Below, piece by piece: positions 644 through 12,257 of a stretch of DNA of 56,466 nucleotides (position 1 is its first letter; each line of letters opens with the position of its first letter). The notes beneath the pieces are model-generated. The model saw only the letters and a list, made by a program, of their open reading frames with translations, had not been told where the DNA came from and ran no database searches. The translations under genes were made by a program, and so were the position numbers. Origin of the DNA: an uncultured Saprospiraceae bacterium. Its GTDB lineage: Bacteria > Bacteroidota > Bacteroidia > Bacteroidales > CAYLPA01. The DNA is taken from positions 1-56,466 of the forward strand of contig CAYLPA010000001.1 of NCBI GenBank assembly GCA_964385385.1, read 5' to 3'.

Positions 644-1681
644 ATGAAACAGATTAATGAAAAGCTTATTAGAGAATCTTTTAATGAAATGGTAAAATAC
701 CGTTCAGCATTAGTAAAACACCTTATTGTAGATGAAGACGAAGACGATGATGATGAAGTGGATTACAGAATATTGGGTGATTTAATTATTAAAAACTTTC
801 CTTGGCCAATAGGAGTTGAATTGAGAAGATTGTTCTCCGGTTCAATGCGTCAATTAGACCGCTTACGCTTAGACCAGATTTTTAAAACCATTGAACGAAC
901 TATGCAATTTGTAAGTTTTGTTATGGTTTCACAACTTTGGAAAGACACATCAAAAGAAAAAATCAAAGTTTCAGAAAGTTTTAGTAAAGATTTTGAAAGC
1001 AGATTTGCGATTCTTAGTTTAGGGAATTTCACTTGGATGATTAGAGCCATTGGCAAAATGTATGAAGAGCAAAATGTTGAATGGTTTATGTCTGAAATGA
1101 ATGAAAATTTTAATAAAAAATTCTATGCTGCATTAGACTTTTGGGTACCTGAAAGAAATGAAATAGGTCATTATCAAATTAATTTAACACAGGAAGAAAT
1201 TGAAAAACGTTGTGTAGAATACGAAGAGAAATTAACCTTCATACTTAAAACAATTGCTTTTATTACTAAATACAAACTTGTTTCAGTCAGGGAAATAAAA
1301 GTACACAATTCTAAAAATCATGATGCAACATTTAACCATGTTATTGATTTATTAAATAGCACTGATAGTGACTTTAAAGCTAAAGAAATTGAAGAAAGCA
1401 AGTTCACAGAAAGTAGAGCTGTATTACTTATGAAATCTATAAAAACTATTGAAGAATATTTGAATCTATCACCTTTAATAATTGACACAAATTCAGAAAT
1501 ACTTGACAATAAGGAGAAATTCGATATTAAGAAGGATATATTCATGTTTACAAAACATCGTTCAGGGCATTTAATGTACGTTGGTACAGAAGTTACTGAT
1601 AAATGTGACCTACGGACTTTAAGTAATTATGATTTGCTAGTTGAAGAGTACAATGAACTTATTGATGCTATTTGTAATTAA
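644..1681 (+). CDS. Hypothetical 345-aa protein with a HEPN-like R-x4-H motif (PERNEIGHY); candidate RNase effector
   Basis: Long ATG-started ORF with an acidic tract (DEDEDDDDE). The RNEIGH motif matches the RNxxxH form of HEPN active sites. No other family was recognised. Confidence 0.6.
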   Translation: MKQINEKLIRESFNEMVKYRSALVKHLIVDEDEDDDDEVDYRILGDLIIKNFPWPIGVELRRLFSGSMRQLDRLRLDQIFKTIERTMQFVSFVMVSQLWKDTSKEKIKVSESFSKDFESRFAILSLGNFTWMIRAIGKMYEEQNVEWFMSEMNENFNKKFYAALDFWVPERNEIGHYQINLTQEEIEKRCVEYEEKLTFILKTIAFITKYKLVSVREIKVHNSKNHDATFNHVIDLLNSTDSDFKAKEIEESKFTESRAVLLMKSIKTIEEYLNLSPLIIDTNSEILDNKEKFDIKKDIFMFTKHRSGHLMYVGTEVTDKCDLRTLSNYDLLVEEYNELIDAICN

Positions 1682-1696
1682 AAATAATTCTAATCT

Positions 1697-1813
1697 ATGA
1701 AAAGTCCATTCAAATTTTTAGATAGCTACACCAAACCTGCCTTTAATAAAATTTCGGCAGGCGAGGAAGATGAAAATATTTTATTTGGCAGAGATAAAGA
1801 AACCGAAGAATAA
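1697..1813 (+). pseudogene. Truncated 38-codon copy of the 5' end of the STAND NTPase gene at 3055..7170
   Basis: Translates to MKSPFKFLDSYTKPAFNKISAGEEDENILFGRDKETEE*, compared with MKSPFKFLDSYTKEDKNIFFGRDKETEELYQ at 3061. The DNA is clearly homologous except for a 30-nt insert containing the hairpin CCTGCC..GGCAGG. Confidence 0.75.
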
Positions 1814-1867
1814 AACAAAATGGACAAACCGTATAACCAACTATATGATTTGTCCAAAAAATAATTG

Positions 1868-1875
1868 TATCTTTG
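1868..1875 (+). promoter_or_regulatory. Bacteroidota -7 box (TATCTTTG) directly upstream of the DUF4143 ATPase gene
   Basis: Exact TAnnTTTG match ending 5 nt before the ATG at 1880, which implies a very short or absent leader. Confidence 0.4.
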
Positions 1876-1879
1876 AATT

Positions 1880-3055
1880 ATGATTAACAGAATTCTAACA
1901 CACAAACTGCTCTATTTTGCAGATTTATATCCTGTTGTAAGCGTAACAGGTCCAAGGCAGTCAGGAAAAACAACCTTGGTTAAACAAGCCTTTCCTAATT
2001 ACCAATATGTTACTCTCGAAGATATTGATACCAGAAATATTGCCTTGAATGACCCAAAAGGATTTCTTGAAAGTCATAAAAATGGTTTAGTTATTGACGA
2101 AATTCAACGCATTCCTGAACTATTTTCATACATACAAGGAATTGTTGATAAAACGAATAATTCCGGACAGTTTATAATTACAGGCTCCCAGAATTTTTTA
2201 TTAATGGAAAATATTTCACAAACATTAGCAGGCAGAATTGCTATTTTGAAATTATTGCCATTTAGTTTCGAAGAGTTAAATAAGAATAACTTACTGCCGG
2301 ACAAATATGAATTATTAATATTTAATGGCTTTTATCCTCGCTTATATGATAAACAAATTTCACCAACAGACTTTTATCCGTTTTATATTCAAACATACAT
2401 TGAACGAGATGTGAAGTTGCTAAGAAATATTACAAATCATAATTCTTTTATAAGGTTCATAAAAATGTGTGCAGGAAGAACAGGGCAATTATTAAATATT
2501 ACTGAATTAGCTAATTCTTGCGGTATTACCCAAATTACTACAAAATCATGGTTGTCAATTCTTGAAGCAAGTTATATAATTTATTTTTTTCGTCCACATT
2601 ATAAAAACTATAATAAAAGATTAACCAAAATGCCAAAATTGTATTTTTATGATACCGGATTAGTATGTTCTTTGTTAGGGATTAAAAATAAAGAACAATT
2701 AAAAACTCATTTTTTATTTGGAGCATTATTTGAGAATTTTATTATTAATGAATTCATTAAACACGCCTATAACAATGCAATTAATCCCGAATTATATTTT
2801 TGGAGAGACAAACACGGAAAAGAAATAGATTTAATTATTGAAACTTCTGATAAGCTTATTCCAATTGAAATAAAAGCAGGAAAAACTTTTTCTATTGATT
2901 ATTTTAAAAACCTGAAATATTGGAATAAAATATCAGGTAATACTTCTGAGAATGCTTATGTAATATATGGAGGAAGTGAAAGTCATAAAACAAAAGATGG
3001 TCAAATATATAGCTGGAAAAGCATACTGGATTTATTTAATTTATTAAACTCATAA
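1880..3055 (+). CDS. AAA-family ATP-binding protein (AAA_14 + DUF4143 type)
   Basis: Walker A GPRQSGKTT, Walker B LVIDEIQ, and the 391-aa length and C-terminal region typical of DUF4143 ATPases common in Bacteroidota. Confidence 0.85.
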   Translation: MINRILTHKLLYFADLYPVVSVTGPRQSGKTTLVKQAFPNYQYVTLEDIDTRNIALNDPKGFLESHKNGLVIDEIQRIPELFSYIQGIVDKTNNSGQFIITGSQNFLLMENISQTLAGRIAILKLLPFSFEELNKNNLLPDKYELLIFNGFYPRLYDKQISPTDFYPFYIQTYIERDVKLLRNITNHNSFIRFIKMCAGRTGQLLNITELANSCGITQITTKSWLSILEASYIIYFFRPHYKNYNKRLTKMPKLYFYDTGLVCSLLGIKNKEQLKTHFLFGALFENFIINEFIKHAYNNAINPELYFWRDKHGKEIDLIIETSDKLIPIEIKAGKTFSIDYFKNLKYWNKISGNTSENAYVIYGGSESHKTKDGQIYSWKSILDLFNLLNS

Positions 3056-6000
3056 TGTATATGAAAAGCCCATTCAAATTTCTCGACAGTTATACCAAAG
3101 AAGATAAAAACATATTTTTTGGAAGAGATAAAGAAACCGAAGAACTTTATCAAAAAGTTTTTGAGAGTAAAGTATTGTTGGTTTATGGAGTTTCCGGTAC
3201 TGGAAAATCATCGCTTATTCATTGTGGGCTTGCTAATAAATTTAATGAGAGTGACTGGTTACCAATTAATATTAGGCGTGGAGCAAACATTAATGTTAGT
3301 TTGGGAAGAGCTATTGAAAAAGAGATTACTTCGACTTCGTTTCGTAATGACAATAAGAAAGGACTTTCACTTAAAAAACTATTACGCAATCTTTATCTTG
3401 ATAATTTTAAACCAATCTACCTTATCTTCGACCAGTTTGAAGAACTATTTATTTTTGGCTCAAAACCCGAAAGGGAAGATTTTATTAAATCAGTAAAATC
3501 AATTGTTGATAGTGATTTAAATTGCAAATTTCTTTTTGTGATTCGTGAAGAATATCTTGCAGGAATAACTGAGTTTGAAAAGCAGTTGCCGCAAATAATG
3601 CTAAACCGTATCCGCATTGAGAAAATGGGCAGGACTAATGCTATTCAAGCGATTGAAGGTCCTTGCAAATTTGCTGATATTTCATTGGAAAATGGTTTTT
3701 CAGAAGCATTAATTGAAAAACTATCACCTGATAGTGCTGAAGTTGAGTTAACCTATTTGCAGGTTTATTTAGATAAGCTTTTTAAAGTATCAGATAGTGG
3801 TTTTACAAAAGATTTAATTGAATCATTTGGAGATGTAAAAGATTTGCTGGGTTCATTTTTGGATGAACAAATTGCTGAATTAGAATCACCTGACGAAGGA
3901 CTTACTATTTTAAAAGCTTTTGTCTCAACCAAAGGAACAAAACGACAAATCACAGAATCAGAAGTTACTGATTATGCACTTACGCTTGGCAAACAAATAG
4001 AATCAGAACAATTAAGAAGTTTAATTCAAAAGTTTATTGCATTAAGGATTTTACGTGATAAAGACGAAAACAACCGTTACGAATTACGCCATGATGCTCT
4101 GGCAGCCAAGATTTATGAAAAAATTACTCTTGTTGAAAAAGAGCTTTTAGAAGTAAGACAGTTTATTGAGCATGCTTATGAAAATTATAAAAGACGAAAA
4201 GTATTATTAAACAAAACTGATTTAAGCTATATCGCACCTTATGAAGATAAAATATACTTTGGAAAAAATTTACAGGAATTTCTGAATAAAAGCAAATATG
4301 AGGATGAAAAGGCAAAACGCCGAAAACGTATATTAATATCTACTGCAGCAATCATTTTGTTACTGATTTTTGCAGGATTTAGTTGGTGGGCATTGAATGA
4401 AAGAAGTAAGGCTCAGGATAAAGAAAAACTTGCAAATGAATTATATATTAAATCTCAAGCAAACAATTTTAATTTCCTTGCAATAGAAGTTTTAGAAACC
4501 AATCCAACAAAAGCATTAGGTATTGCTGAATATGCTTATTCTCTAGATTCTAATAATAAAAACATTTACCAAAACTTATTAAACATTTATTATAACTATC
4601 CAATATATAAAAGGATCATAAAGAGGCTTAATAATGAAATAAGCTCAGTATGTTTCTCCCCAGATGGAAAAACATTAATAACTGGTTCTTGGGATAATAC
4701 TGCCCGTTTATGGGATTTGAATGGAAATCTGTTGCAGATTTTTAAAGGGCATAAATATGAAATTACTTCAGTAAGTTTCTCACCTGATGGGAAAACAATA
4801 CTAACTGGTTCTTTGGATATGACTGCCCGCTTATGGGATTTGGATGGAAAACAATTGCAGGTATTTAAAGGGCATGAAGGCTCTATTCATTCAGTATGTT
4901 TTTCACCTGATGGAAAAAAATTACTAACTGGTTCTTTTGATAAGACTGCCCGTTTATGGAATTTGGATGGTAACCAATTGCAGGTATTTAAAGGACATGA
5001 AAGCATAATCGTATCCGTATGTTTTTCACCTGATGGAAAAACAATACTAACTGGTTCTTCAGATAAGACTGCCCGTTTATGGGATTTGGATGGAAAACAA
5101 TTGCAGGTATTTAAAGGGCATAAAAGCTCTATCAATTCCGTATGCTTTTCACCCAATGGAAAAACAATACTAACTGGTTCTAATGATAAAACTGCCCGTT
5201 TATGGGATTTGGATGGAAAACAATTGCAGGTATTTAAAGGGCATAAAAGCTTTATTCGTTCAGTATGTTTTTCACCTAATGGACAAACATTACTAACTGG
5301 TTCTTTTGATAATACTGCCCGTTTATGGGGTTTGGATGGAAACCAATTGCAGGTATTTAAAGGACATAAAATGAGAATTCATTCCGTTTGTTTTTCCCCT
5401 GATGGAAAAACATTACTAACTGGTTCTTGGAATAATGTCCATTTATGGGATATGGGTGGAAACCTATTGCAGGTATTTAAAGGGCATGAAAGCTCTATTC
5501 GTTCAGTATGTTTTTCACCTGATGGAAAAACATTACTAACAGGTTCTGATGATAAGACTGTCCGTTTATGGGATTTGGATGGAAAACAATTGCAGGTATT
5601 TAAAGGGCATGAAAGCGGTATTCATTCAGTATGTTTTTCACCTGATGGAAAAACATTAATAACTGGTTCTTGGGATAATACTGCCCGTTTATGGGATTTG
5701 GATGGAAACCAATTGCAGAGATTTAATATGCAAGAGATTTCATCAATGTGTTTTTCCCCTGATGGAAAAACATTACTAACTGGTTCTTGGGATAATACTT
5801 TAAATTTATGGGATTGGGATGGGAACCAATTGCAGGTATTTAAAGGACATGAAGGCAATATTATTTTAGTATGTTTTTCACCTGATGGAAAGACAATACT
5901 AACAGGTTCTGTTGATAAGACTGCCCGTTTATGGGATTTGGATGGGAACCAATTGCAGGTATTTAAAGGGCATGAAGATGATATTTACACAGTGTGTTTT

Positions 6001-7170
6001 CACACTGATGGAAAGACAATACTAACGGGTTCTCGGGATAAAACTGCCCGTTTATGGGATTTGGATGGAAACCAATTGCAGGTATTTAAAGGACATGAAG
6101 GCAGTATTAGTTCAGTATGTTTTTCCCCTGACGGGAAATCAATAATAACTGGTTCAAGTGATGATGACAAATTAATATTATGGGATTTAGAAGGGCATCA
6201 ATTGCAATTATTTGCAAATCTGGGCTTTTCTTCTAATATGATTGATTTTTCTCCTGATGGTAAAACTATCTTAATTGGTTTAGAAAATGGAACAGCACAA
6301 CTATGGAAATTAAAAACACCATATAATAAATTTAAACAAAAAGACAAATATCCGAAGTTAAGTATAACTGATAAATTGGAATATGGCATATATAATTTCA
6401 ATGATGTTAAAAAAACAGAAAACAAAAATGAACTATTTCAAGCAGCTATGTTTTATTTTGAAAACTATAACAGAGAACCAAAAAGAAATTATGATTATTT
6501 GAATAATGCAGAATTTATTTTCAATAAACTATACAATATAAGCAAAGACGTTAATTATTTAATACAATATCAAAAACTTATATTAATTAAATACCTACAA
6601 AAAGCTGATGAAAAGCTAATTGATAAATCAAAAAAAATACATAAAAAATTATTAGAATATTATGATATGAAATATTTATGGGAAATAATACGAGAGTATG
6701 ATTCTCTATTGGAAAAATATTCTGAAAATGTTAATATTTCTGAATTTAATTTTCATAAAAAACGTTTAGACATATATAAAAAAACACTAAATCATAAAGA
6801 TGCAACAAAAGAAACAAAAAAAACTATATCACTACGCTTATCAAAAGATTCATACAATTTATTATTAGATAAAAAATATGAAGAGGCAAAACAAGCAGCG
6901 TTATTAGCTAAGCAAGCAAATCCAAATAACACAATTCTATATACCAATTTAGCACTTGCTTACCTTTTAACTGATGATTGGCAAAAAGCAAAAGAAGTTT
7001 ATACAAATTGGAAGGATAGTACCTATATTAACAATAATAATCCGGAAAGAAAGTGCAGAGATGCTTTCTTAGAAGGTTTAAAAGAATTAGAAAGCGAAGG
7101 CATAACTCACCCAGATTTCTCCAAAGTCAGAGAATTGTTAAAAGAAGAAAAAACTGAAACCAATGAATAA
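3055..7170 (+). CDS. STAND (nSTAND/NACHT-like) P-loop NTPase, single TM helix, 14 WD40 repeats, C-terminal TPR-like region
   Basis: FFGRDKETEEL..LLVYGVSGTGKSS (Walker A) and IYLIFDQFEELF (Walker B-like DQFEE). TM helix ILISTAAIILLLIFAGFSWWAL. Fourteen repeats of about 41 aa of the form SVCFSPDGKT.LTGS.D.TARLWDL.G.QLQVFKGH. TPR-like tail. The true start may be the ATG at 3061, which matches the remnant copy. Confidence 0.9.
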   Translation: MYMKSPFKFLDSYTKEDKNIFFGRDKETEELYQKVFESKVLLVYGVSGTGKSSLIHCGLANKFNESDWLPINIRRGANINVSLGRAIEKEITSTSFRNDNKKGLSLKKLLRNLYLDNFKPIYLIFDQFEELFIFGSKPEREDFIKSVKSIVDSDLNCKFLFVIREEYLAGITEFEKQLPQIMLNRIRIEKMGRTNAIQAIEGPCKFADISLENGFSEALIEKLSPDSAEVELTYLQVYLDKLFKVSDSGFTKDLIESFGDVKDLLGSFLDEQIAELESPDEGLTILKAFVSTKGTKRQITESEVTDYALTLGKQIESEQLRSLIQKFIALRILRDKDENNRYELRHDALAAKIYEKITLVEKELLEVRQFIEHAYENYKRRKVLLNKTDLSYIAPYEDKIYFGKNLQEFLNKSKYEDEKAKRRKRILISTAAIILLLIFAGFSWWALNERSKAQDKEKLANELYIKSQANNFNFLAIEVLETNPTKALGIAEYAYSLDSNNKNIYQNLLNIYYNYPIYKRIIKRLNNEISSVCFSPDGKTLITGSWDNTARLWDLNGNLLQIFKGHKYEITSVSFSPDGKTILTGSLDMTARLWDLDGKQLQVFKGHEGSIHSVCFSPDGKKLLTGSFDKTARLWNLDGNQLQVFKGHESIIVSVCFSPDGKTILTGSSDKTARLWDLDGKQLQVFKGHKSSINSVCFSPNGKTILTGSNDKTARLWDLDGKQLQVFKGHKSFIRSVCFSPNGQTLLTGSFDNTARLWGLDGNQLQVFKGHKMRIHSVCFSPDGKTLLTGSWNNVHLWDMGGNLLQVFKGHESSIRSVCFSPDGKTLLTGSDDKTVRLWDLDGKQLQVFKGHESGIHSVCFSPDGKTLITGSWDNTARLWDLDGNQLQRFNMQEISSMCFSPDGKTLLTGSWDNTLNLWDWDGNQLQVFKGHEGNIILVCFSPDGKTILTGSVDKTARLWDLDGNQLQVFKGHEDDIYTVCFHTDGKTILTGSRDKTARLWDLDGNQLQVFKGHEGSISSVCFSPDGKSIITGSSDDDKLILWDLEGHQLQLFANLGFSSNMIDFSPDGKTILIGLENGTAQLWKLKTPYNKFKQKDKYPKLSITDKLEYGIYNFNDVKKTENKNELFQAAMFYFENYNREPKRNYDYLNNAEFIFNKLYNISKDVNYLIQYQKLILIKYLQKADEKLIDKSKKIHKKLLEYYDMKYLWEIIREYDSLLEKYSENVNISEFNFHKKRLDIYKKTLNHKDATKETKKTISLRLSKDSYNLLLDKKYEEAKQAALLAKQANPNNTILYTNLALAYLLTDDWQKAKEVYTNWKDSTYINNNNPERKCRDAFLEGLKELESEGITHPDFSKVRELLKEEKTETNE
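4639..6312 (+). repeat. Tandem 123-bp coding repeats (14 WD40 blades), highly homogenised at DNA level
   Basis: The core actgcccgtttatgggatttggatggaaa(a/c)caattgcaggtatttaaagg(g/a)cat recurs near-identically at 123-nt spacing (for example 5068 and 5191 are identical). Confidence 0.9.
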
Positions 7171-8482
7171 ACAAATTAAAATATCAAAAACAACTCCCGT
7201 AGAATCATTTTATATTATAGTCTGTGGTATGTTCAAATACGACACTAAGGCTATTAATCAGAAAGAGTTCTGGAGTTTATACACACACTGGCAAAATCGC
7301 ATAAACAAAGGAGATTATCAGGCAACCTTTAATTATTTCAATTCATCCTATTATGATGGTTACCTAAATAATGTCTTTCCGGAAATACGTCATGACAAAT
7401 CAAGAAGAGATGAATTGGACCCTAAATTCTTAAATCATCTGACAAACAAATCACTTATAAAAAACAGATTGGATATTGGCTTAATGATAAATTCTGAGAA
7501 AACTGTTTCTTGTTTTATTGAATTTGCTGACATTTATCTTTTTCCTCATGGTAATGGGATTTTTTCGATAAAATTGTCATTAGACGATGATAATCTAAAT
7601 TTAGGTAAAATATCAGATTTTATTAATAAAGTCAGACAATTAAATTCTATTGTGAAAATCGACAAAAAGGAAATTAAGCTAAAGGATTTTATTGACGATA
7701 TAATTTTCAAACCATTAAACTCAAAAGAAGATTGGACTTACTATAATCCAAAATTAAAGTCCTACAATATAATTGATGTAAAGAAGCAAATTTCAGAAGA
7801 TGAATTAAATTATTTGCTTTATGATATGGGGAATGTAGCCCCAATAGGTTCTGCTAAGGGTGATGGTGTTTATGCCCCATCTGACGAATATTTGAAAAAC
7901 CAAATGGAAAATAATAAGCTGTCTGTTTTTAAAAATTGGTCAGCAATTTCTTTGTTTGATACATTTACGAAAATAAGCTGGACATTTCCTGATACTGTGA
8001 AGAGCTGGGAGTATGATTATTTTCATATTTACATTCACTGTCTGCATTTAAAATTTTACATGTATCTTACTAACTCAAAAATTAGTGATGTTACTATTGT
8101 TACTAAAGAAACTGAAAATATAAGGGATGATTTCATTGAGTTTATTAACGATTATTATCAAACGCAAATTTCATATAAGTTTTTGCCTGATTTAATTCAG
8201 GATAAATTATTGTATGCATTGGAAATCCATTCTGAAATTCAAATGATGGAAACAAAAATTCAACGCATAAATGAACATGCTCAGGAAAAACGAGAACGAA
8301 ATATGAACTTCGTTTTAATGGTCATTACATTTTTAGGTGTTTTCTCTCTTATTCATGATTTGTCAAACTGGATAGTTAAAATGGGAAGTCCAATAGATGT
8401 TGTTTTTCCATGGATAAGTAGCGGAATTGGTGTTGCTATTATTACATCAATATTTATTTTATTTAAACTACGAAAGAAATAA
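7163..8482 (+). CDS. Hypothetical 439-aa protein with a soluble N-terminal region, a coiled-coil and a C-terminal 2-TM hairpin (CorA-like architecture); candidate membrane effector
   Basis: Its ATG overlaps the STAND stop (ATGAATAA). The C-terminus has two hydrophobic helices (FVLMVITFLGVFSLI and SGIGVAIITSIFILF) after EIHSEIQMMETKIQRINEHAQEKRERN. Confidence 0.75.
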   Translation: MNKQIKISKTTPVESFYIIVCGMFKYDTKAINQKEFWSLYTHWQNRINKGDYQATFNYFNSSYYDGYLNNVFPEIRHDKSRRDELDPKFLNHLTNKSLIKNRLDIGLMINSEKTVSCFIEFADIYLFPHGNGIFSIKLSLDDDNLNLGKISDFINKVRQLNSIVKIDKKEIKLKDFIDDIIFKPLNSKEDWTYYNPKLKSYNIIDVKKQISEDELNYLLYDMGNVAPIGSAKGDGVYAPSDEYLKNQMENNKLSVFKNWSAISLFDTFTKISWTFPDTVKSWEYDYFHIYIHCLHLKFYMYLTNSKISDVTIVTKETENIRDDFIEFINDYYQTQISYKFLPDLIQDKLLYALEIHSEIQMMETKIQRINEHAQEKRERNMNFVLMVITFLGVFSLIHDLSNWIVKMGSPIDVVFPWISSGIGVAIITSIFILFKLRKK

Positions 8483-8489
8483 TATCTAA

Positions 8490-9083
8490 GTGAAGGAAAT
8501 AGACTTAAATAAAGTAATTTTCACAATTGAAGCACAGTTTCATGTATTGAAACATTTCAATAGCATTGATAAGGAATTTCTCGACGAATTAATTATTGCT
8601 GGTTTTTCAAAATCTGATATAAATAGTCAGTTGAAGATTTCTAGTTCCAAATTTAATCCTTCTTTCTGCATTAATCCAATACAACTTTTAAGTATTATTA
8701 AAAGAGCAAATAAAAGGTCAGAAATACAAGCAAATTCAGGAAAAAAGAACATTGAACTATCATTTGAATTTTCAAAAAATGACTATCCTAATGGTATTGG
8801 ATGGGACCATTTAATTCGCATTATAGATTTGACAGAAAAACAACTCATAAACATTGAAAAAAGAAAAGTTCAAAATACAGTTATAAATTTCACTGAAGGA
8901 AAACCTATTCCAACACATGAATTAAATTTTGTACTGGAACAAAAAGATAGTAAACATCATATTGTTACAATATACCCTGGTATTTATGCTCCACCATTTC
9001 AAGATATAACATCTCAAAATAATGGATTATTCCAGATTTCTAAAGTTTTTTGGGATGAACATGTATTTGTTTTTATAAGCTGA
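8490..9083 (+). CDS. Hypothetical 197-aa protein, last gene of the STAND block
   Basis: GTG start 7 nt after the upstream stop, with no in-frame ATG nearby. No family recognised. Confidence 0.6.
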   Translation: MKEIDLNKVIFTIEAQFHVLKHFNSIDKEFLDELIIAGFSKSDINSQLKISSSKFNPSFCINPIQLLSIIKRANKRSEIQANSGKKNIELSFEFSKNDYPNGIGWDHLIRIIDLTEKQLINIEKRKVQNTVINFTEGKPIPTHELNFVLEQKDSKHHIVTIYPGIYAPPFQDITSQNNGLFQISKVFWDEHVFVFIS

Positions 9084-9200: not shown

Positions 9201-9812
9201 ATGTTTACAGGAATCGTTGAAAGAACAGCAAAGGTTGTGAATATTGAAAAAGAAGGCACAAATATTCATTTCACATTGGAAACAAAAATTGCCAAAGATT
9301 TAAAAATTGACCAGAGCATGTCTCACGATGGGGTTTGCTTAACAATTGTTAAAGTTGACACCAAAAAAAATCAATATGTTGTTACAGCCATTCAGGAAAC
9401 CCTTGATAAATCTTGCCTTGGGATATGGGATATCGGCTATGAAGTAAATCTTGAAAGAAGCATGAAAATGGATGGACGTTTTGACGGACATATTGTTCAG
9501 GGACATGTTGACCAAACTGCAATTTGCCGAAAAGTTGAAAAATTTGATGGCAGTTGGAAATTCTATTTTGAATATGACCCTTCTTACGGAAATATCACCG
9601 TTGGAAAAGGTTCTATTTCTGTCAATGGTGTTAGTTTAACCGTTGTAGATTCTGAACCTAAGATGTTCTCTGTTGCAATCATTCCTTATACTTATGATAT
9701 TACTAATTTCCACAATTTTAAAAATGGCACAGTAGTTAACATTGAATTCGACATTTTCGGAAAATATGTTTCTAAACTTTTAAAACTCTATTTGGAAGAT
9801 CAAAAAAAGTAA
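9201..9812 (+). CDS. ribE: Riboflavin synthase alpha chain
   Basis: MFTGIVE N-terminus, duplicated lumazine-binding halves (SHDGVCLT / SVNGVSLT), 203 aa. Confidence 0.92.
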   Translation: MFTGIVERTAKVVNIEKEGTNIHFTLETKIAKDLKIDQSMSHDGVCLTIVKVDTKKNQYVVTAIQETLDKSCLGIWDIGYEVNLERSMKMDGRFDGHIVQGHVDQTAICRKVEKFDGSWKFYFEYDPSYGNITVGKGSISVNGVSLTVVDSEPKMFSVAIIPYTYDITNFHNFKNGTVVNIEFDIFGKYVSKLLKLYLEDQKK

Positions 9813-9878: not shown

Positions 9879-10595
9879 ATGAAAACTAATATTTATAAAA
9901 CCATTTTATGGGTTTGCATTTTAGCAATTGCTATGGCATTTCTGGAAAGTGCAATCGTTGTTTATCTCCGAAAATTATATTATCCCGAAGGATTCTGTTT
10001 TCCATTAAAAAGCATTGAATTTGACATTGCAGTTACTGAATTTCTCCGAGAAATTGCAACGCTAATAATGTTGATAGCAATAGGAATTATTGCGGGCAGA
10101 AAAAACATTGAACGTTTTGCATTCTTTATTTTTTCCTTTGCTATCTGGGACATTTTTTATTATGTATTTCTAAAATTGCTTATCAGTTGGCCTGAATCTT
10201 TAATGACCTGGGATGTTCTATTTCTTGTTCCAGTTACATGGGTAGGTCCTGTTCTCGGACCTATAATAAATTCATTAAGTATGATAATTTTGGCTTTACT
10301 TATAATTTTCTTTGTTCAAAAAAACGGAAATGCAAGAGTTGTCTGGATTGAATGGATATTATTGATTGTTGGCTCTCTAATTATTATTATCTCCTACACC
10401 GAAGAATATGTTAGATTTATGATAAATGATTTTACTTTTTTTCAGTTGATTATTTCTAATAATTCTCAAGCAATCTTAAGCAAAGCATTAACTTTTGTTC
10501 CCCAATTTTATAATTGGTTTATTTTTCTGATTGGTGAACTAATGTTTTTAATAGCTTTCGTGATGGTGCTTATAAGAAATAGAAAACTTTCTTAA
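9879..10595 (+). CDS. Polytopic inner-membrane protein, function unknown
   Basis: 238 aa with about 6 hydrophobic segments. No family recognised. Confidence 0.7.
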   Translation: MKTNIYKTILWVCILAIAMAFLESAIVVYLRKLYYPEGFCFPLKSIEFDIAVTEFLREIATLIMLIAIGIIAGRKNIERFAFFIFSFAIWDIFYYVFLKLLISWPESLMTWDVLFLVPVTWVGPVLGPIINSLSMIILALLIIFFVQKNGNARVVWIEWILLIVGSLIIIISYTEEYVRFMINDFTFFQLIISNNSQAILSKALTFVPQFYNWFIFLIGELMFLIAFVMVLIRNRKLS

Positions 10596-10601
10596 AAATT
10601 T

Positions 10602-12194
10602 TTACTGCAACACAACTTTTTCAACCTTAACAAAATCTTTATTTGCAAGTTTGATGAAATATATTCCTTTAAGTTGTGATGACAAATCAAATTGGAGATT
10701 ATTTTGATTGTGAAAAATCAATTTGGGTTTTATTATTTCCTGACCTAATATGTTTTGTATTGAAAGTATAAAATCTTTTTTTATTCCCGAATGATTAATC
10801 TTAATAATTCCTGTAGTTGGATTTGGGTATATATTTATTTTGGCTTGTTTTAAATCAAAATGCGGCAATCCCACATTCGCACATAAGGAAGAATCCTGAA
10901 TATATTGAATATTGCCCACACCACTATGAGCTCCTTTCACAATACAACCTGAGCTAATCTGAATCGGATCATAGTATGTTAATGTTGATGGACTACTGAC
11001 AATAGTATTTGTTGGAAAACAATTACAAAGTGTATTACCGTATTTGTCTGTTTTAATCATATAAACATTAAGGGGTAAAGAACCTACATTAAAGCTACCA
11101 CTCTGTCCCGTAATTATAAATCCACTATCACTTGTTATCTCTAACGCATACGCGAAGTCATGGTCAATTCCACCATACATTTTAGTCCATAAAGTATCAC
11201 CAACAGAATCCGTTCTAATTAAATAAACATTATAACATGGGTTACTTGGTGTACATTTTTCACCACCAATATTATTACTTTGCATTCTTCCGGCAATTAT
11301 ATACCCATTATCATAAGTTTGTCTTACAATATAGCCTTCATCTCCATAACTATCACCATAAGTTTTTGACCATTGAAGATATCCGAGAGAATCAGTTTTT
11401 ATAAAATATACATCAACAATACCACCTACTGCATAGCTTACCGTTGAACCTATGATTGCATATCCACCATCATTGGTTTCAATAACATCTTTAGCCCAAT
11501 CATAAGTTGAACCTCCATAAATTCTTGTCCACAAGGTATCTCCGTTAGGATTAATTTTAATTAAACAAACATTATCATAGAAATTTTGCGCAATAGCTCC
11601 TGTAATAACATAATTACTGTCGGAAGTCATTTTTATAGATTTTCCATTATCACTCTTTATTCCTCCAAAGGTTCTTGTCCAAATTGTATCGCCTGATGAA
11701 TTAATTCTAATCACATAAATATCTGATAAACCTGCTCCATAACTTTCAGTTAAACCCGTAATAATATATCCATTATCTTTAGTATATTCTATCGAAAATG
11801 CCTCATCACTATTTAAACCTCCATAAGTTTTGGTCCAAATTGTATCTCCGTATTTGTCAGTCTTAACAACATATATATCATGCCCCCCTGCACCTGAACT
11901 ATGAGTCCTTCCCGCAGCAATAAAACCACTATCATTAGTTTCTTTTACCGCATAAAAATAACCCTGACTTACCAAAACTCCAATATCATAGTTCTTTGCC
12001 CATTCAATATTTCCCAAACTATCGGTTTTTGTCATTCCACTACCTGCCATTAGGTAACCATTATCATAAGTAATAATGCAGGCATTATTTGTTGTTAAAT
12101 CCTTACCACTATAAGCTTTTTGAAAATTTTGTGCATTAATAATTATACTTATAGTTTGGCAAAACACCATTGTAATAAAAAATATCTTTTTCAT
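10602..12194 (-). CDS. Secreted repeat protein with a T9SS (Por_Secre_tail) C-terminal sorting domain
   Basis: Signal peptide MKKIFFITMVFCQTISIIINAQ, taken from the ATG at 12194 rather than the track start at 12224. Repeated GDT.WT.TYGG...D modules. C-terminus is IYPNPTTGIIKI...KGIYFIKLANKDFVKVEKVVLQ. Confidence 0.85.
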   Translation of the reverse strand: MKKIFFITMVFCQTISIIINAQNFQKAYSGKDLTTNNACIITYDNGYLMAGSGMTKTDSLGNIEWAKNYDIGVLVSQGYFYAVKETNDSGFIAAGRTHSSGAGGHDIYVVKTDKYGDTIWTKTYGGLNSDEAFSIEYTKDNGYIITGLTESYGAGLSDIYVIRINSSGDTIWTRTFGGIKSDNGKSIKMTSDSNYVITGAIAQNFYDNVCLIKINPNGDTLWTRIYGGSTYDWAKDVIETNDGGYAIIGSTVSYAVGGIVDVYFIKTDSLGYLQWSKTYGDSYGDEGYIVRQTYDNGYIIAGRMQSNNIGGEKCTPSNPCYNVYLIRTDSVGDTLWTKMYGGIDHDFAYALEITSDSGFIITGQSGSFNVGSLPLNVYMIKTDKYGNTLCNCFPTNTIVSSPSTLTYYDPIQISSGCIVKGAHSGVGNIQYIQDSSLCANVGLPHFDLKQAKINIYPNPTTGIIKINHSGIKKDFILSIQNILGQEIIKPKLIFHNQNNLQFDLSSQLKGIYFIKLANKDFVKVEKVVLQ

Positions 12195-12216
12195 AATTTG
12201 TAAAGTTAATAAAAAC

Positions 12217-12257
12217 AATAACAACCATAATTAAATATAATAATTATGGTTGTTATT
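12217..12257 (-). terminator. Perfect 17-bp stem hairpin between the lipoprotein gene and the T9SS repeat-protein gene
   Basis: aataacaaccataatta / taattatggttgttatt with a 7-nt loop. On the minus strand it is followed by gtttttatt. Confidence 0.55.

Follow-up and report, generated by a model that had tools for sequence, protein, structure and literature searches.

Gene content and setting of the locus

The window analysed here, a 56,466-nt stretch of DNA, derives from an uncultured Bacteroidales genome. The core of the locus is a conserved, previously undescribed gene pair predicted to encode a HEPN-type RNase and a membrane-spanning NLR-like ATPase; alongside it, this genome has an ATPase gene inserted into the locus and an optional module built on a CorA-like membrane protein. 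The four forward-strand ORFs listed by a sequence-only reading were all recovered by ORF calling: g1 (644–1681; 345 aa), encoding the constant partner protein; g2 (3055–7170; 1371 aa), a membrane-spanning nSTAND1 NTPase with a sensor made of WD40 repeats and a helical tail; g3 (7163–8482; 439 aa), a CorA-like membrane protein; and g4 (8490–9083; 197 aa, GTG start), a soluble protein without a known family. That list was incomplete, as it overlooked a complete 391-aa gene on the same strand, gX (1880–3055), which encodes an ATPase with AAA_14 and DUF4143 domains.

Downstream of the block, ribE is present at 9201, as had been read (Lum_binding, 2.4e-42), and on longer contigs a gene for an 863-aa CHU_C protein and htpG are found upstream, the neighbourhood extending past the window start. 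No defence island surrounds the locus on the longer contigs examined, where CHU_C/htpG and ribE are ordinary flanking genes, so that the defence-island setting considered earlier was not borne out; nor was the locus found in a search of viral contigs. PADLOC, Pfam and NCBIfam searches matched no Avs, bNACHT or other named defence system, in agreement with the initial impression, and cas10 and other cas genes are absent from the locus and from the related loci examined.

The conserved g1–nSTAND1 pair

Genes g1 and nSTAND1 constitute a core two-gene module, for which we found no description in the literature. An nSTAND1 gene lies directly 3′ of g1, on the same strand, in 65 of 75 GTDB Bacteroidales loci (median gap 37 nt), and the sequence identities of g1 and the NTPase co-vary (Spearman 0.785; Mantel, 0 of 300). 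The nSTAND1 partners range from 605 to 1557 aa and have C-termini that include WD40, GldM_3rd/4th and ABC2_membrane. At least four copies occur in one 3.5-Mb genome, and paralogous nSTAND1 genes also form tandem arrays with fragments and insertions. Neighbouring positions in related loci are occupied by SIR2-like, RhuM, PycTM and PDC-S01 genes, and the signalling genes TPR-SpoIIE, TPR-HATPase_c and TPR-cyclase are found near such loci.

In the locus studied here, a pseudogene remnant identified by sequence comparison (1697–1813, forward strand) starts 15 nt after g1, preserves ~28 codons from the start of an nSTAND1 gene and ends in TAA. It is 85–89% identical to 3061–3144, with homology ending at 1810, and contains an in-frame 30-nt hairpin insert (1736–1765). 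The sequence-only reading had recognized this copy of the g2 5′ end and proposed that g1 and g2 were once adjacent; the copy is there, and the proposed former adjacency agrees with the pairing in 65 of 75 loci, which makes it the family norm. The intervening gX carries the AAA_14 (2.5e-32) and DUF4143 (7.1e-53) domains in Pfam and shares with PADLOC PDC-S01 (PDLC04790) a full-length match (2.5e-104; residues 2–373 on model positions 12–407 of 422), and its stop codon adjoins the start of g2. PDC-S01 is a single-gene PADLOC candidate without a demonstrated mechanism, whereas gX sits squeezed in between g1 and nSTAND1, a position it also takes in four other loci (L035, L039, L050 and L084); in a further locus, L092, the order is gX, nSTAND1, g3, g4. 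Clearly, gX is a later arrival, either a secondary insertion or an accessory gene.

The nSTAND1 NTPase module of g2 (3070–4191, forward strand; residues 6–379) matches PF20703 at 139.7 bits (curated cut-off 27.1), covering model positions 1–372 of 379. Its P-loop is intact, with the Walker A motif GVSGTGKSS at residues 45–53 (K51), and its Walker B motif is acidic, LIFDQFEE at residues 123–130 (D126 and E129-E130) within IYLIFDQFEELF (residues 121–132), which bears out the earlier assignment of these motifs to an nSTAND NTPase. Because the Pfam match begins at residue 6, g2 carries neither a fused N-terminal effector nor an N-terminal adaptor; by comparison with homologues, translation probably begins at the ATG at 3061 (MKSPFKF...). 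The orthologue in L092 is 65% identical and has the same architecture.

A hydropathy scan located a single transmembrane (TM) helix in g2 (4330–4386, forward strand; residues 426–444), with KAKRRKR on its N-side, and 73 of 81 nSTAND1 homologues likewise carry such a helix beyond the NTPase. Taken with the positive-inside rule, this arrangement would place the WD40 blades and the tail in the periplasm, so that, on a topology drawn only from the hydropathy scan and charge bias, the g2 sensor is probably periplasmic and the NTPase cytoplasmic. Sister nSTAND1 proteins end in GldM C-terminal domains, which in GldM itself are periplasmic.

The sensor contains 14 WD40 units (4627–6342, forward strand) arranged as two propellers (Pfam WD40, 6.8e-166 over 13 stretches). 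Each unit is ~41 aa long (TRF: period 123 nt, 12.4 copies, 82% matches), and the units are near-identical, their differences being concentrated at unit positions 2, 3, 6 and 22. The one TM helix and the 14 blades had thus been read correctly, while the TPR-like tail also announced at that time is accurate only in part: a helical tail does form the g2 C-terminus (6343–7167, forward strand), but it is weakly TPR-like, TPR_19, TPR_17 and TPR_2 all matching below threshold (E 0.0035–0.02). This tail is the most divergent segment of g2 with respect to the L092 orthologue (50% identity). PADLOC reported no Avs or bNACHT for g2, just a WD40-driven HEAT-ARM_XIII match and a weak mad8 match.

g1, a candidate HEPN RNase

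The g1 protein returned zero matches in Pfam, NCBIfam, PADLOC and PDB. It has >1092 homologues, the best 120 of which are 67–100% identical; the mean column identity is 77% (alignment A2), and the mean pairwise identity is 0.67 versus 0.59 for the NTPase module. The AF2 model (pLDDT 80.6, pTM 0.86) consists of a helical, HEPN-like N-domain (residues ~45–209) and a beta domain (residues 211–313), followed by a C-terminal helix.

The RNEIGH motif noticed earlier (R171–H176; 1154–1171, forward strand) is a candidate HEPN active site, with the upstream glutamate E84 (nt 893–895, forward strand) as its candidate partner. Since R-x4-H is expected by chance ~0.3 times in a protein of this size (our own estimate), the weight of the motif comes from its conservation, not its presence. 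RNEIGH is unchanged in 41 close homologues, and E84, R171, N172 and H176 are the sole invariant columns among 16 divergent solo relatives, that is, relatives not fused to another domain. The motif is retained in 34 of 48 solo relatives versus 2 of 65 fused ones, the latter comprising CHAT-sized proteins (about 560–660 aa; 2/53), longer AraC-HTH/cyclase-type proteins (0/7) and mid-length proteins (0/5). Its loss on fusion to another output domain, and its retention in solos, is what would be expected if the motif were the solo output.

HEPN proteins have been described as all-alpha, with a core of four helices and an R-x4-6-H motif (with a polar residue after R) that closes the third helix, ahead of the loop to the fourth (PMC3710099). 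In g1, the motif takes the form RN-x3-H, invariant in the close and divergent solos and with a polar residue after R as HEPN proteins have it (N, D or H), and an invariant Glu lies upstream of it. In the AF2 model, the motif ends helix 167–180 and is followed by the last core helix, 183–203, a placement that would fit this description, in a region where pLDDT is only 63. E84 provides the second HEPN feature, a conserved upstream acidic residue in helix 2; it lies in the long helix 72–103, in the context E-x3-[QH], not the typical E-x3-[KR]. Sub-threshold matches to the four Pfam families HEPN_RiboL-PSP (best 5.5e-4), HEPN_Apea (5.2e-3), HEPN_Swt1 (7.6e-3) and HEPN_MAE_28990 (0.011), and further weak HEPN-type matches to Cas13a and RTasHEPN, stem from divergent g1 relatives, not from g1 itself, and are largely motif-driven. 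No HEPN family gave a significant profile match to g1 (Pfam on g1 being empty), hhalign against one DUF4145 protein gave a probability of 2%, and Foldseek of the g1 model against PDB and BFVD returned no HEPN structure (E ≥ 0.14). The proposal that g1 is of the HEPN RNase type therefore draws on the RNxxxH/Glu conservation and the sub-threshold hits, but its fold was not confirmed by profile or structure comparison; we regard g1 as probably a HEPN RNase, a candidate whose activity is predicted.

The g3–g4 pair

The g2 stop and the g3 start overlap (ATGAATAA), and the GTG start of g4 lies 7 nt past the g3 stop, both as had been read in the sequence. The two TM helices ascribed to g3 are C-terminal (hydropathy scan; 8309–8365 and 8402–8458, forward strand; residues 383–401 and 414–432). 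The protein matches the PADLOC CorA-like model PDLC01174 (4.8e-13; residues 148–434 on model positions 174–436 of 446) and a second PADLOC model (1.2e-6); Pfam CorA (PF01544) was unmatched at E ≤ 0.1. Its AF2 model (pLDDT 88.8) combines an alpha/beta domain in the cytosol with long helices and the C-terminal TM pair, and Foldseek ranks 1–12 are all CorA, ZntB or CmaX (best E 2e-3, probability 0.99), with alignments of 306–343 columns and low TM-scores of 0.2–0.3. Both HMM and fold comparisons place g3 among CorA-like proteins, and it is not an orphan. The mark of Mg2+-transporting CorA is the GMN motif; this is absent from the TM1–TM2 region of g3 and from the g3 family consensus, so that g3 cannot be counted among the canonical Mg2+ transporters.

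In 19 of 30 loci, g4 is found directly 3′ of g3. Its invariant residues are Q16, H18, L20, H22, F23, S53, F55, G102, G104, P163, G164, P168, F187 and W188, and searches of Pfam and PDB found no family for it, NrN, DEDD and SAM lyase included.

Only 4 of the 80 g1-anchored loci contain g3. In L129, g3–g4 come directly after TPR-SpoIIE, without nSTAND1 within 10 kb upstream and with the contig ending just after g4; in L127, they follow a gene for an ABC/TerB protein, without nSTAND1 nearby. Given these distributions, a functional link between g1–g2 (module A) and g3–g4 (module B) is putative, and g3–g4 is an autonomous pair, separate from g1–g2. The original view of one four-gene system accordingly had to be given up: g1 with nSTAND1, and g3 with g4, are linked across genomes, but the four genes are not fixed together. 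No signal-generating enzyme able to gate a CorA-like channel is evident at the locus.

Known systems, possible mechanism and competing explanations

Conflict systems centred on nSTAND1 have been described by Kaur, Iyer, Burroughs and Aravind 2020/2021 (PMC7159879, PMC8195603), and DGR-diversified nSTAND1 sensors are also on record (PMC10907252). These conflict systems share with the g2 locus PF20703, variable C-terminal repeat sensors, adjacent-gene effectors, and annotated TM segments and signal peptides. Their effectors are engaged via EAD or Death-like adaptors, or are a fused caspase, TIR or trypsin, whereas g2 has no such adaptor and is partnered by a conserved 345-aa HEPN-like protein without a family model. 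Avs/AVAST and bNACHT likewise have a tripartite make-up (repeat sensor, STAND NTPase, nuclease-type effector) and are activated through oligomerisation, but each is one soluble polypeptide that has its effector fused at the N-terminus and binds phage proteins through a sensor in the cytoplasm, whereas in g2 a TM helix separates NTPase and sensor, the candidate effector is encoded in trans and PADLOC finds no match. The fungal NWD/HET-E NLRs also join a STAND NTPase to internally near-identical WD40 repeats with few variable positions per repeat, a focused variability shared with g2; unlike g2, they are NACHT-family proteins of the cytoplasm with a role in allorecognition. In Ire1 and RNase L, a sensor controls a KEN-type HEPN RNase via an oligomerising nucleotide-binding module, across a membrane in the case of Ire1; KEN is counted as a HEPN family (PMC3710099). 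A kinase or pseudokinase replaces STAND in these proteins and the RNase is fused, so the likeness is one of analogy only, with no sequence relationship. Finally, CorA effectors associated with type III CRISPR are paired with a small soluble enzyme, namely NrN, DEDD or SAM-AMP lyase (PMC10600005), and CorA with NrN resembles g3–g4 in the CorA fold, the two C-terminal TM helices, the large cytosolic domain and the small soluble partner gene; g3–g4 differ in lacking cas10/cas genes or a known signal synthase and in that g4 is unrelated to NrN, DEDD and SAM lyase.

We infer that the locus is a STAND/NLR-like conflict system differing from the named ones, with a putative role in defence or in envelope signalling. 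The reading that we tentatively favour, with slightly less than even confidence, sees the locus as an inserted gene added to a pair of conserved modules: module A, an NLR-like surveillance pair; module B, an optional CorA-like arm; and gX as a latecomer, which would have truncated the nSTAND1 gene that originally came after g1. In module A, g2 would be a single-pass inner-membrane protein with its NTPase in the cytoplasm and its two WD40 propellers and helical tail in the periplasm. Binding of a ligand outside the cytoplasm, possibly derived from a phage or another attacker or representing an envelope cue, would lead to nucleotide-dependent oligomerisation of the NTPase modules, which in turn would recruit or dimerise the dedicated partner g1; the HEPN-like domain of g1 (E84, R171, N172, H176) would then cleave RNA, with growth arrest or a stress response as the outcome. 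Such a logic would be Ire1/RNase L-like, with the RNase supplied in trans. In module B, g3 would be a CorA-like, probably pentameric, ligand-gated membrane protein acting as a membrane effector, and g4 a small soluble partner regulating it, the two forming an optional second arm that here appears translationally coupled to g2.

A less probable yet serious competitor is that module A has no immune or abortive function but transduces signals across the envelope in response to envelope, nutrient or cell-contact cues, with g1 as a dedicated adaptor whose HEPN-like site processes a specific regulatory RNA or is non-catalytic. The strong conservation of g1 speaks for this, as ~70% identity across an order is unusually high for a conflict-system effector, and so do a sensor probably facing the periplasm, the housekeeping neighbours and the nearby TPR-SpoIIE, TPR-HATPase_c and TPR-cyclase genes; Bacteroidota are, moreover, known for expanded families of membrane sensors. 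Fusion partners of g1 relatives point both ways: AraC-HTH and class III cyclase domains fit signalling, the AraC-HTH fusion among close relatives favouring transcriptional signalling over cell killing, but a CHAT protease, typical of conflict systems, is the fusion partner of many relatives. Near-identical sensor repeats with focused variability, tandem paralogous nSTAND1 arrays with fragments and insertions, and the SIR2-like, RhuM, PycTM and PDC-S01 genes in neighbouring positions also argue against a signalling role.

That g1–g2, gX and g3–g4 are instead three independent units in a variable region, g3–g4 being unrelated to the STAND pair and perhaps an ion-transport or regulatory pair of TPR-SpoIIE, we consider unlikely. 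It would explain the scarcity of g3 in g1 loci, the nSTAND1-free settings of g3–g4 in L127 and L129 and the later arrival of gX, but nSTAND1 is present in 8 of the 20 g3 loci with enough flank, against ~6% by chance on our own rough estimate. The association of g3 with g1 or nSTAND1 also persists over at least five arrangements (L092, L010/L108, L009, L031/L111/L114 and L089/L110), some with g3 and g1 divergent and separated by about 80 nt, and the g2–g3 overlap seen here has a counterpart in L092, where the nSTAND1 gene and g3 abut. Still more doubtful is a g1 that is no nuclease but serves the NTPase as inhibitor, chaperone or scaffold, in the manner of an antitoxin or a constant structural subunit, leaving the output to g3 or an unlinked effector. 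The residues best conserved family-wide (P53, R75, C190, E194, L197, F206, Y210 and P277; 92–99%) lie outside RNxxxH, fused forms make up more than half of the 150 g1 relatives listed and almost all lack the motif, and Foldseek found no HEPN fold; all this would suit such a role, but it would not account for a motif lost specifically upon fusion to another output domain and kept in solos, nor for E, R, N and H being all that stays invariant in the divergent solo proteins.

Layout of the locus and its nSTAND1 NTPase

The block at 644-9083 comprises, all on the forward strand, five intact genes and a pseudogene fragment. g1 (644-1681, 345 aa), which falls in no described family and carries a HEPN-like motif, is followed by a 38-codon remnant of the 5′ end of an nSTAND1 NTPase gene (1697-1813), gX (1880-3055, 391 aa; AAA_14 and DUF4143 domains, PADLOC candidate PDC-S01), g2 (3055-7170, 1371 aa; nSTAND1, TM helix and WD40), the CorA-like g3 (7163-8482, 439 aa) and g4 (8490-9083, 197 aa), likewise without a family. 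A sequence-only reading had proposed g1 to g4 as a four-gene NLR/STAND conflict system, and gX is absent from that account. The features it described are all present, namely the RNEIGH motif of g1 (residues 171-176), the Walker A (GVSGTGKSS) and Walker B-like (LIFDQFEE) motifs and single TM helix (residues 426-444) of g2, the g2/g3 overlap (ATGAATAA), the two C-terminal TM helices of g3, the GTG start of g4 7 nt past g3, and the STAND remnant 15 nt past g1.

On longer contigs with an identical locus, a CHU_C protein (863 aa) and htpG lie upstream and ribE downstream, and therefore the block sits among ordinary genes. We also took as ordinary context, just past ribE, a multi-pass membrane protein of 238 aa that matches no Pfam family (9879-10595) and, on the minus strand, a 540-aa repeat-rich ORF (10602-12224), whose counterpart on the longer contigs measures 522-530 aa and has a Por_Secre_tail (T9SS sorting) domain. 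A scan for terminators and for promoters of the sigma-70 type, which does not extend to those of Bacteroidota, was uninformative (54 promoter sites, with 58 expected by chance; no terminator).

g2 clearly belongs to the nSTAND1 family (PF20703, 139.7 bits versus a cut-off of 27.1), and its true start is likely the ATG at 3061, as in homologues. The NTPase is followed by the stretch KAKRRKR, the TM helix, 14 WD40 units of ~41 aa each, in agreement with the blades counted earlier, and a helical tail; the tail had been called TPR-like, and its TPR matches are sub-threshold only. At the DNA level, the WD40 array (4627-6342) is a 123-nt tandem repeat of 12.4 copies with 82% matches, and the amino-acid variation is focused at four positions of each 41-aa unit (2, 3, 6 and 22), a pattern reminiscent of fungal NLRs, in which the repeats of one protein are highly conserved among themselves. 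Identity to the g2 orthologue in a related locus (L092) declines along the protein, from 79% in the NTPase through 70% in the linker and 66% in the WD40 array to 50% in the tail. This orthologue has one WD40 unit fewer.

The TM helix stands right behind the NTPase module in 73 of 81 distinct homologues (median start residue 435), and sister proteins of g2 carry GldM_3rd/4th domains past it, which in GldM are periplasmic. Because of the TM helix, the charge bias and the GldM domains of the sister proteins, the NTPase of g2 is predicted to be cytoplasmic and its sensor periplasmic.

A putative HEPN protein paired with the NTPase

g1 has no significant match in Pfam, NCBIfam or PADLOC, and neither g1 nor its family profiles match PDB sequences. 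Its homologues number more than 1092, the best 120 being 67-100% identical, and the members of its clusters are all named 'hypothetical' or 'class 3 adenylate cyclase'. When one genome per GTDB species was scanned, 171 copies turned up; all 80 g1 loci kept come from Bacteroidales/Bacteroidia MAGs, and at least four copies lie on a single chromosome of 3.5 Mb. Scans of viral contigs for g1 and for a CHAT-fused relative found no relatives.

For every locus fetched, we predicted ORFs and ran profiles of the five proteins against them. A same-strand nSTAND1 gene comes next after g1 in 65 of the 75 loci with downstream sequence (median gap 37 nt), and a gX-type gene does so in 4/75. The more alike two g1 proteins are, the more alike are their adjacent NTPase modules (Spearman 0.785 between the pairwise identities, a value reached by 0/300 Mantel permutations). 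The 65/75 linkage and the correlated identities support the earlier proposal that genes 1 and 2 belong together. The constant part consists of g1, at a mean identity of 0.67, and the NTPase module, at 0.59; the C-terminal sensor is variable, with total nSTAND1 protein lengths of 605-1557 aa. Several MAGs (L045, L051, L065 and L049) have duplicate g1 genes, tandem or divergent, upstream of a single nSTAND1 gene. We considered g1 as an EACC1-like constant component and rejected this, EACC1 being a single-TM domain paired with a caspase.

The AF2 model of g1 is good (pLDDT 80.6, pTM 0.86), with a helical domain reaching residue 209, followed by a beta domain (211-313) and a terminal helix. When searched with Foldseek against PDB and BFVD, it gave no match below E 0.14, and no HEPN structure was among the matches listed. 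A HMMER search of 1.84 billion cluster representatives placed 804 relatives (clusters at 50% identity) in the g1 family. Among the best 150 of these, many of ~560-660 aa bear an N-terminal CHAT domain and closer relatives an AraC-HTH with or without a class III cyclase; the R..H pair of the motif is kept in 34/48 stand-alone relatives (solos), 2/53 CHAT-sized, 0/7 long and 0/5 mid-length proteins. The sole invariant columns in 16 divergent solos (16-46% identity) are E84, R171, N172 and H176 in g1 numbering. HEPN proteins are described as having an Rx4-6H motif at the end of helix 3, the R being followed by a polar residue (N, D or H), and an acidic residue upstream in helix 2 (PMC3710099). 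The invariant residues of g1 follow this pattern, and in the model, at low confidence for this region (pLDDT 63), the motif ends a helix (167-180) directly before another (183-203). The best Pfam matches of the divergent solos, all sub-threshold, are HEPN families (RiboL-PSP, 5.5e-4; Apea, 5.2e-3; Swt1, 7.6e-3; MAE_28990, 0.011), and PADLOC gives weak sub-threshold matches to Cas13a and RTasHEPN. An hhalign comparison of the divergent-solo profile with one DUF4145 (HEPN) protein aligned the motif region without significance (probability 2%). We regard g1 as a probable HEPN protein, not as a demonstrated one.

Across the whole family, P53, R75, C190, E194, L197, F206, Y210 and P277 are better conserved than the motif, which fits a common docking scaffold with differing outputs, either an RNase site of its own (solos) or a fused domain. 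In three close g1 relatives (P0218, P0233 and P0234; E ~1e-110 to 1e-77), the fusion partners are AraC-HTH and a class III cyclase domain; the latter has a weak match to PycC, the Pycsar cyclase (2.7e-9).

The CorA-like module and rival readings

g3 matches PADLOC CorA-like models (4.8e-13 and 1.2e-6), and its AF2 model (pLDDT 88.8) retrieves CorA, ZntB or CmaX at Foldseek ranks 1-12 (best E 2e-3, probability 0.99, TM-scores low). It falls below Pfam CorA, the GMN motif is absent and its profile has no match among PDB sequences, the CorA link being drawn solely from PADLOC and Foldseek. g4 lies directly behind g3 in 19/30 loci and several of its His, Gln, Ser, Gly, Pro and Trp residues are invariant; four relatives came from a word-indexed homologue search and more were drawn from the loci, and neither the single sequence nor a 15-member profile has a match in Pfam, NCBIfam or PDB. 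Between the window (8490-9083) and L092 (8757-9356), g4 is ~30% identical, diverging far faster than the neighbouring g3 (~70%) and g2 (65%).

The notion of a fixed four-gene system did not survive the census. Because g3 is present in only 4/80 g1 loci, yet nSTAND1 in 8/20 g3 loci with sufficient flank, g3-g4 is a separate, facultative module, enriched near nSTAND1; it also occurs elsewhere without nSTAND1, as in L129, where none was found in the 10 kb upstream, and in L127, where the 10 kb on each side had none. The order nSTAND1-g3-g4 is seen in the window, L092 and L010/L108, and nSTAND1-x-TPR-SpoIIE-g3-g4 in L009, L094, L097 and L098; g3/g1 pairs are divergent in L031, L111 and L114, and the arrangement is convergent in L089/L110. 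The module often has a TPR-SpoIIE gene (PP2C phosphatase) directly upstream, as in L009 (8038-9936), L129 (8155-9996) and L130 (7926-9824), and an ABC/TerB gene precedes the module in L127. TPR-HATPase_c and TPR-guanylate-cyclase genes neighbour g1 in L004 and L010, and together with TPR-SpoIIE they may mark a wider signalling neighbourhood around these loci. The closest functional precedent for g3-g4 is the type III CRISPR CorA effector, whose obligate partner is a small enzyme that degrades the signal (PMC10600005); unlike that system, the g3-g4 locus has no cas genes or known signal synthase.

Our tentative reading, which we put slightly short of an even chance, is an NLR-like pair in which the outward-facing repeat sensor would control oligomerisation of the NTPase, and this in turn would activate the HEPN-like g1 in trans; the CorA-like module would be an optional membrane arm and gX a later insertion. 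The main rival, somewhat unlikely in our estimate, holds that this architecture works in envelope or environmental signalling, not in conflict, and it draws on the strong conservation of g1, the AraC-HTH fusions and the housekeeping context; it would still give Bacteroidota a new signalling architecture. That the modules are unrelated neighbours we consider distinctly unlikely. Very unlikely, too, is that g1 is a non-catalytic scaffold.

A fuller version of the NLR-like pair, unlikely to hold in all its parts, is a trans-envelope immune or surveillance pathway of environmental Bacteroidales. A hypervariable WD40 (or GldM-like) periplasmic sensor would detect an extracytoplasmic threat, oligomerisation of the membrane-anchored nSTAND1 would signal to a dedicated new HEPN RNase family, and a non-CRISPR CorA-like ligand-gated channel with its partner would form an interchangeable second effector arm; in other lineages, a CHAT protease, cyclase or AraC-HTH output would have replaced the RNase site of the docking module. 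Such a design would be Ire1/RNase L-like, with an independent origin, and, if true, g2 would be the first STAND receptor with demonstrated extracytoplasmic sensing.

Earlier work has described nSTAND1, effectors encoded as separate genes, and STAND sensors associated with membranes (PMC8195603, PMC7159879, PMC10907252). Searches of Pfam, NCBIfam, PADLOC v2 and the searchable literature found neither the g1 family and its pairing with TM-nSTAND1, nor the pattern of active solos and inactive fusions, nor the non-CRISPR CorA-like/g4 pair; no named system of this composition was found there either, in line with the sequence-only reading, which knew of none. To our knowledge, the bacterial STAND/NLR-like immune proteins characterised so far are soluble, recognise phage proteins in the cytoplasm and have their effector on the same polypeptide. 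The pair would add a membrane-spanning receptor with an outward-facing, repeat-diversified sensor, a separately encoded, strongly conserved partner from a sizeable unannotated family (804 clusters at 50% identity), and a natural experiment, the RNase-type motif being kept in the stand-alone partner and lost upon fusion to a protease, cyclase or DNA-binding output. CorA-like membrane proteins with a small partner outside CRISPR loci raise the question of the gating ligand.

gX, the remnant and a proposed history of the insertion

gX matches AAA_14 (2.5e-32), DUF4143 (7.1e-53) and PDC-S01 (2.5e-104). The remnant before it is 85-89% identical to the first 84 nt of g2, with homology stopping at 1810, and contains a 30-nt in-frame insert (1736-1765) with a hairpin (CCTGCC-14 nt-GGCAGG) that is absent from the intact g2 5′ end and may be a small REP-like element. 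Within the 69-nt leader just upstream of gX, an inverted repeat at 1821-1856 (TGGACAAACCGTATA / TATATGATTTGTCCA; 15 nt, 87% complementary, 6-nt loop) coincides in part with a pair of sigma-70-like hexamers.

Genes of the gX type lie between g1 and nSTAND1 in L035, L039, L050 and L084 and frequently adjoin the nSTAND1 start codon; in L092 the order is TPR-SpoIIE (188-2044), gX, the g2 orthologue, g3 and g4. A truncated nSTAND1 5′ end precedes an unrelated gX homologue in L001 (29% identity) and an IS200/RAYT-like gene in L084, and the remnants are cut at differing codons (~16, 27, 38 and 78). The conserved nSTAND1 5′ end may be a hot spot of recombination or insertion. Most simply, an L092-like gX-nSTAND1-g3-g4 block would have recombined into a resident g1-nSTAND1 locus, truncating the resident gene. 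A site-specific mobile element was rejected for gX, the homologues at this slot being too different (29% identity in L001).

Truncated nSTAND1 genes elsewhere (~codons 16, 27 and 78) include L084 12138-13060 and L001 13217-13453. Defence-type genes are scattered near related loci (L130 3446-4000, L127 18947-21332, L001 5795-7330 and 15098-16120), among them PycTM between two nSTAND1 genes, DUF4145 (HEPN) with AAA_15, a faint SIR2_2 and RhuM.
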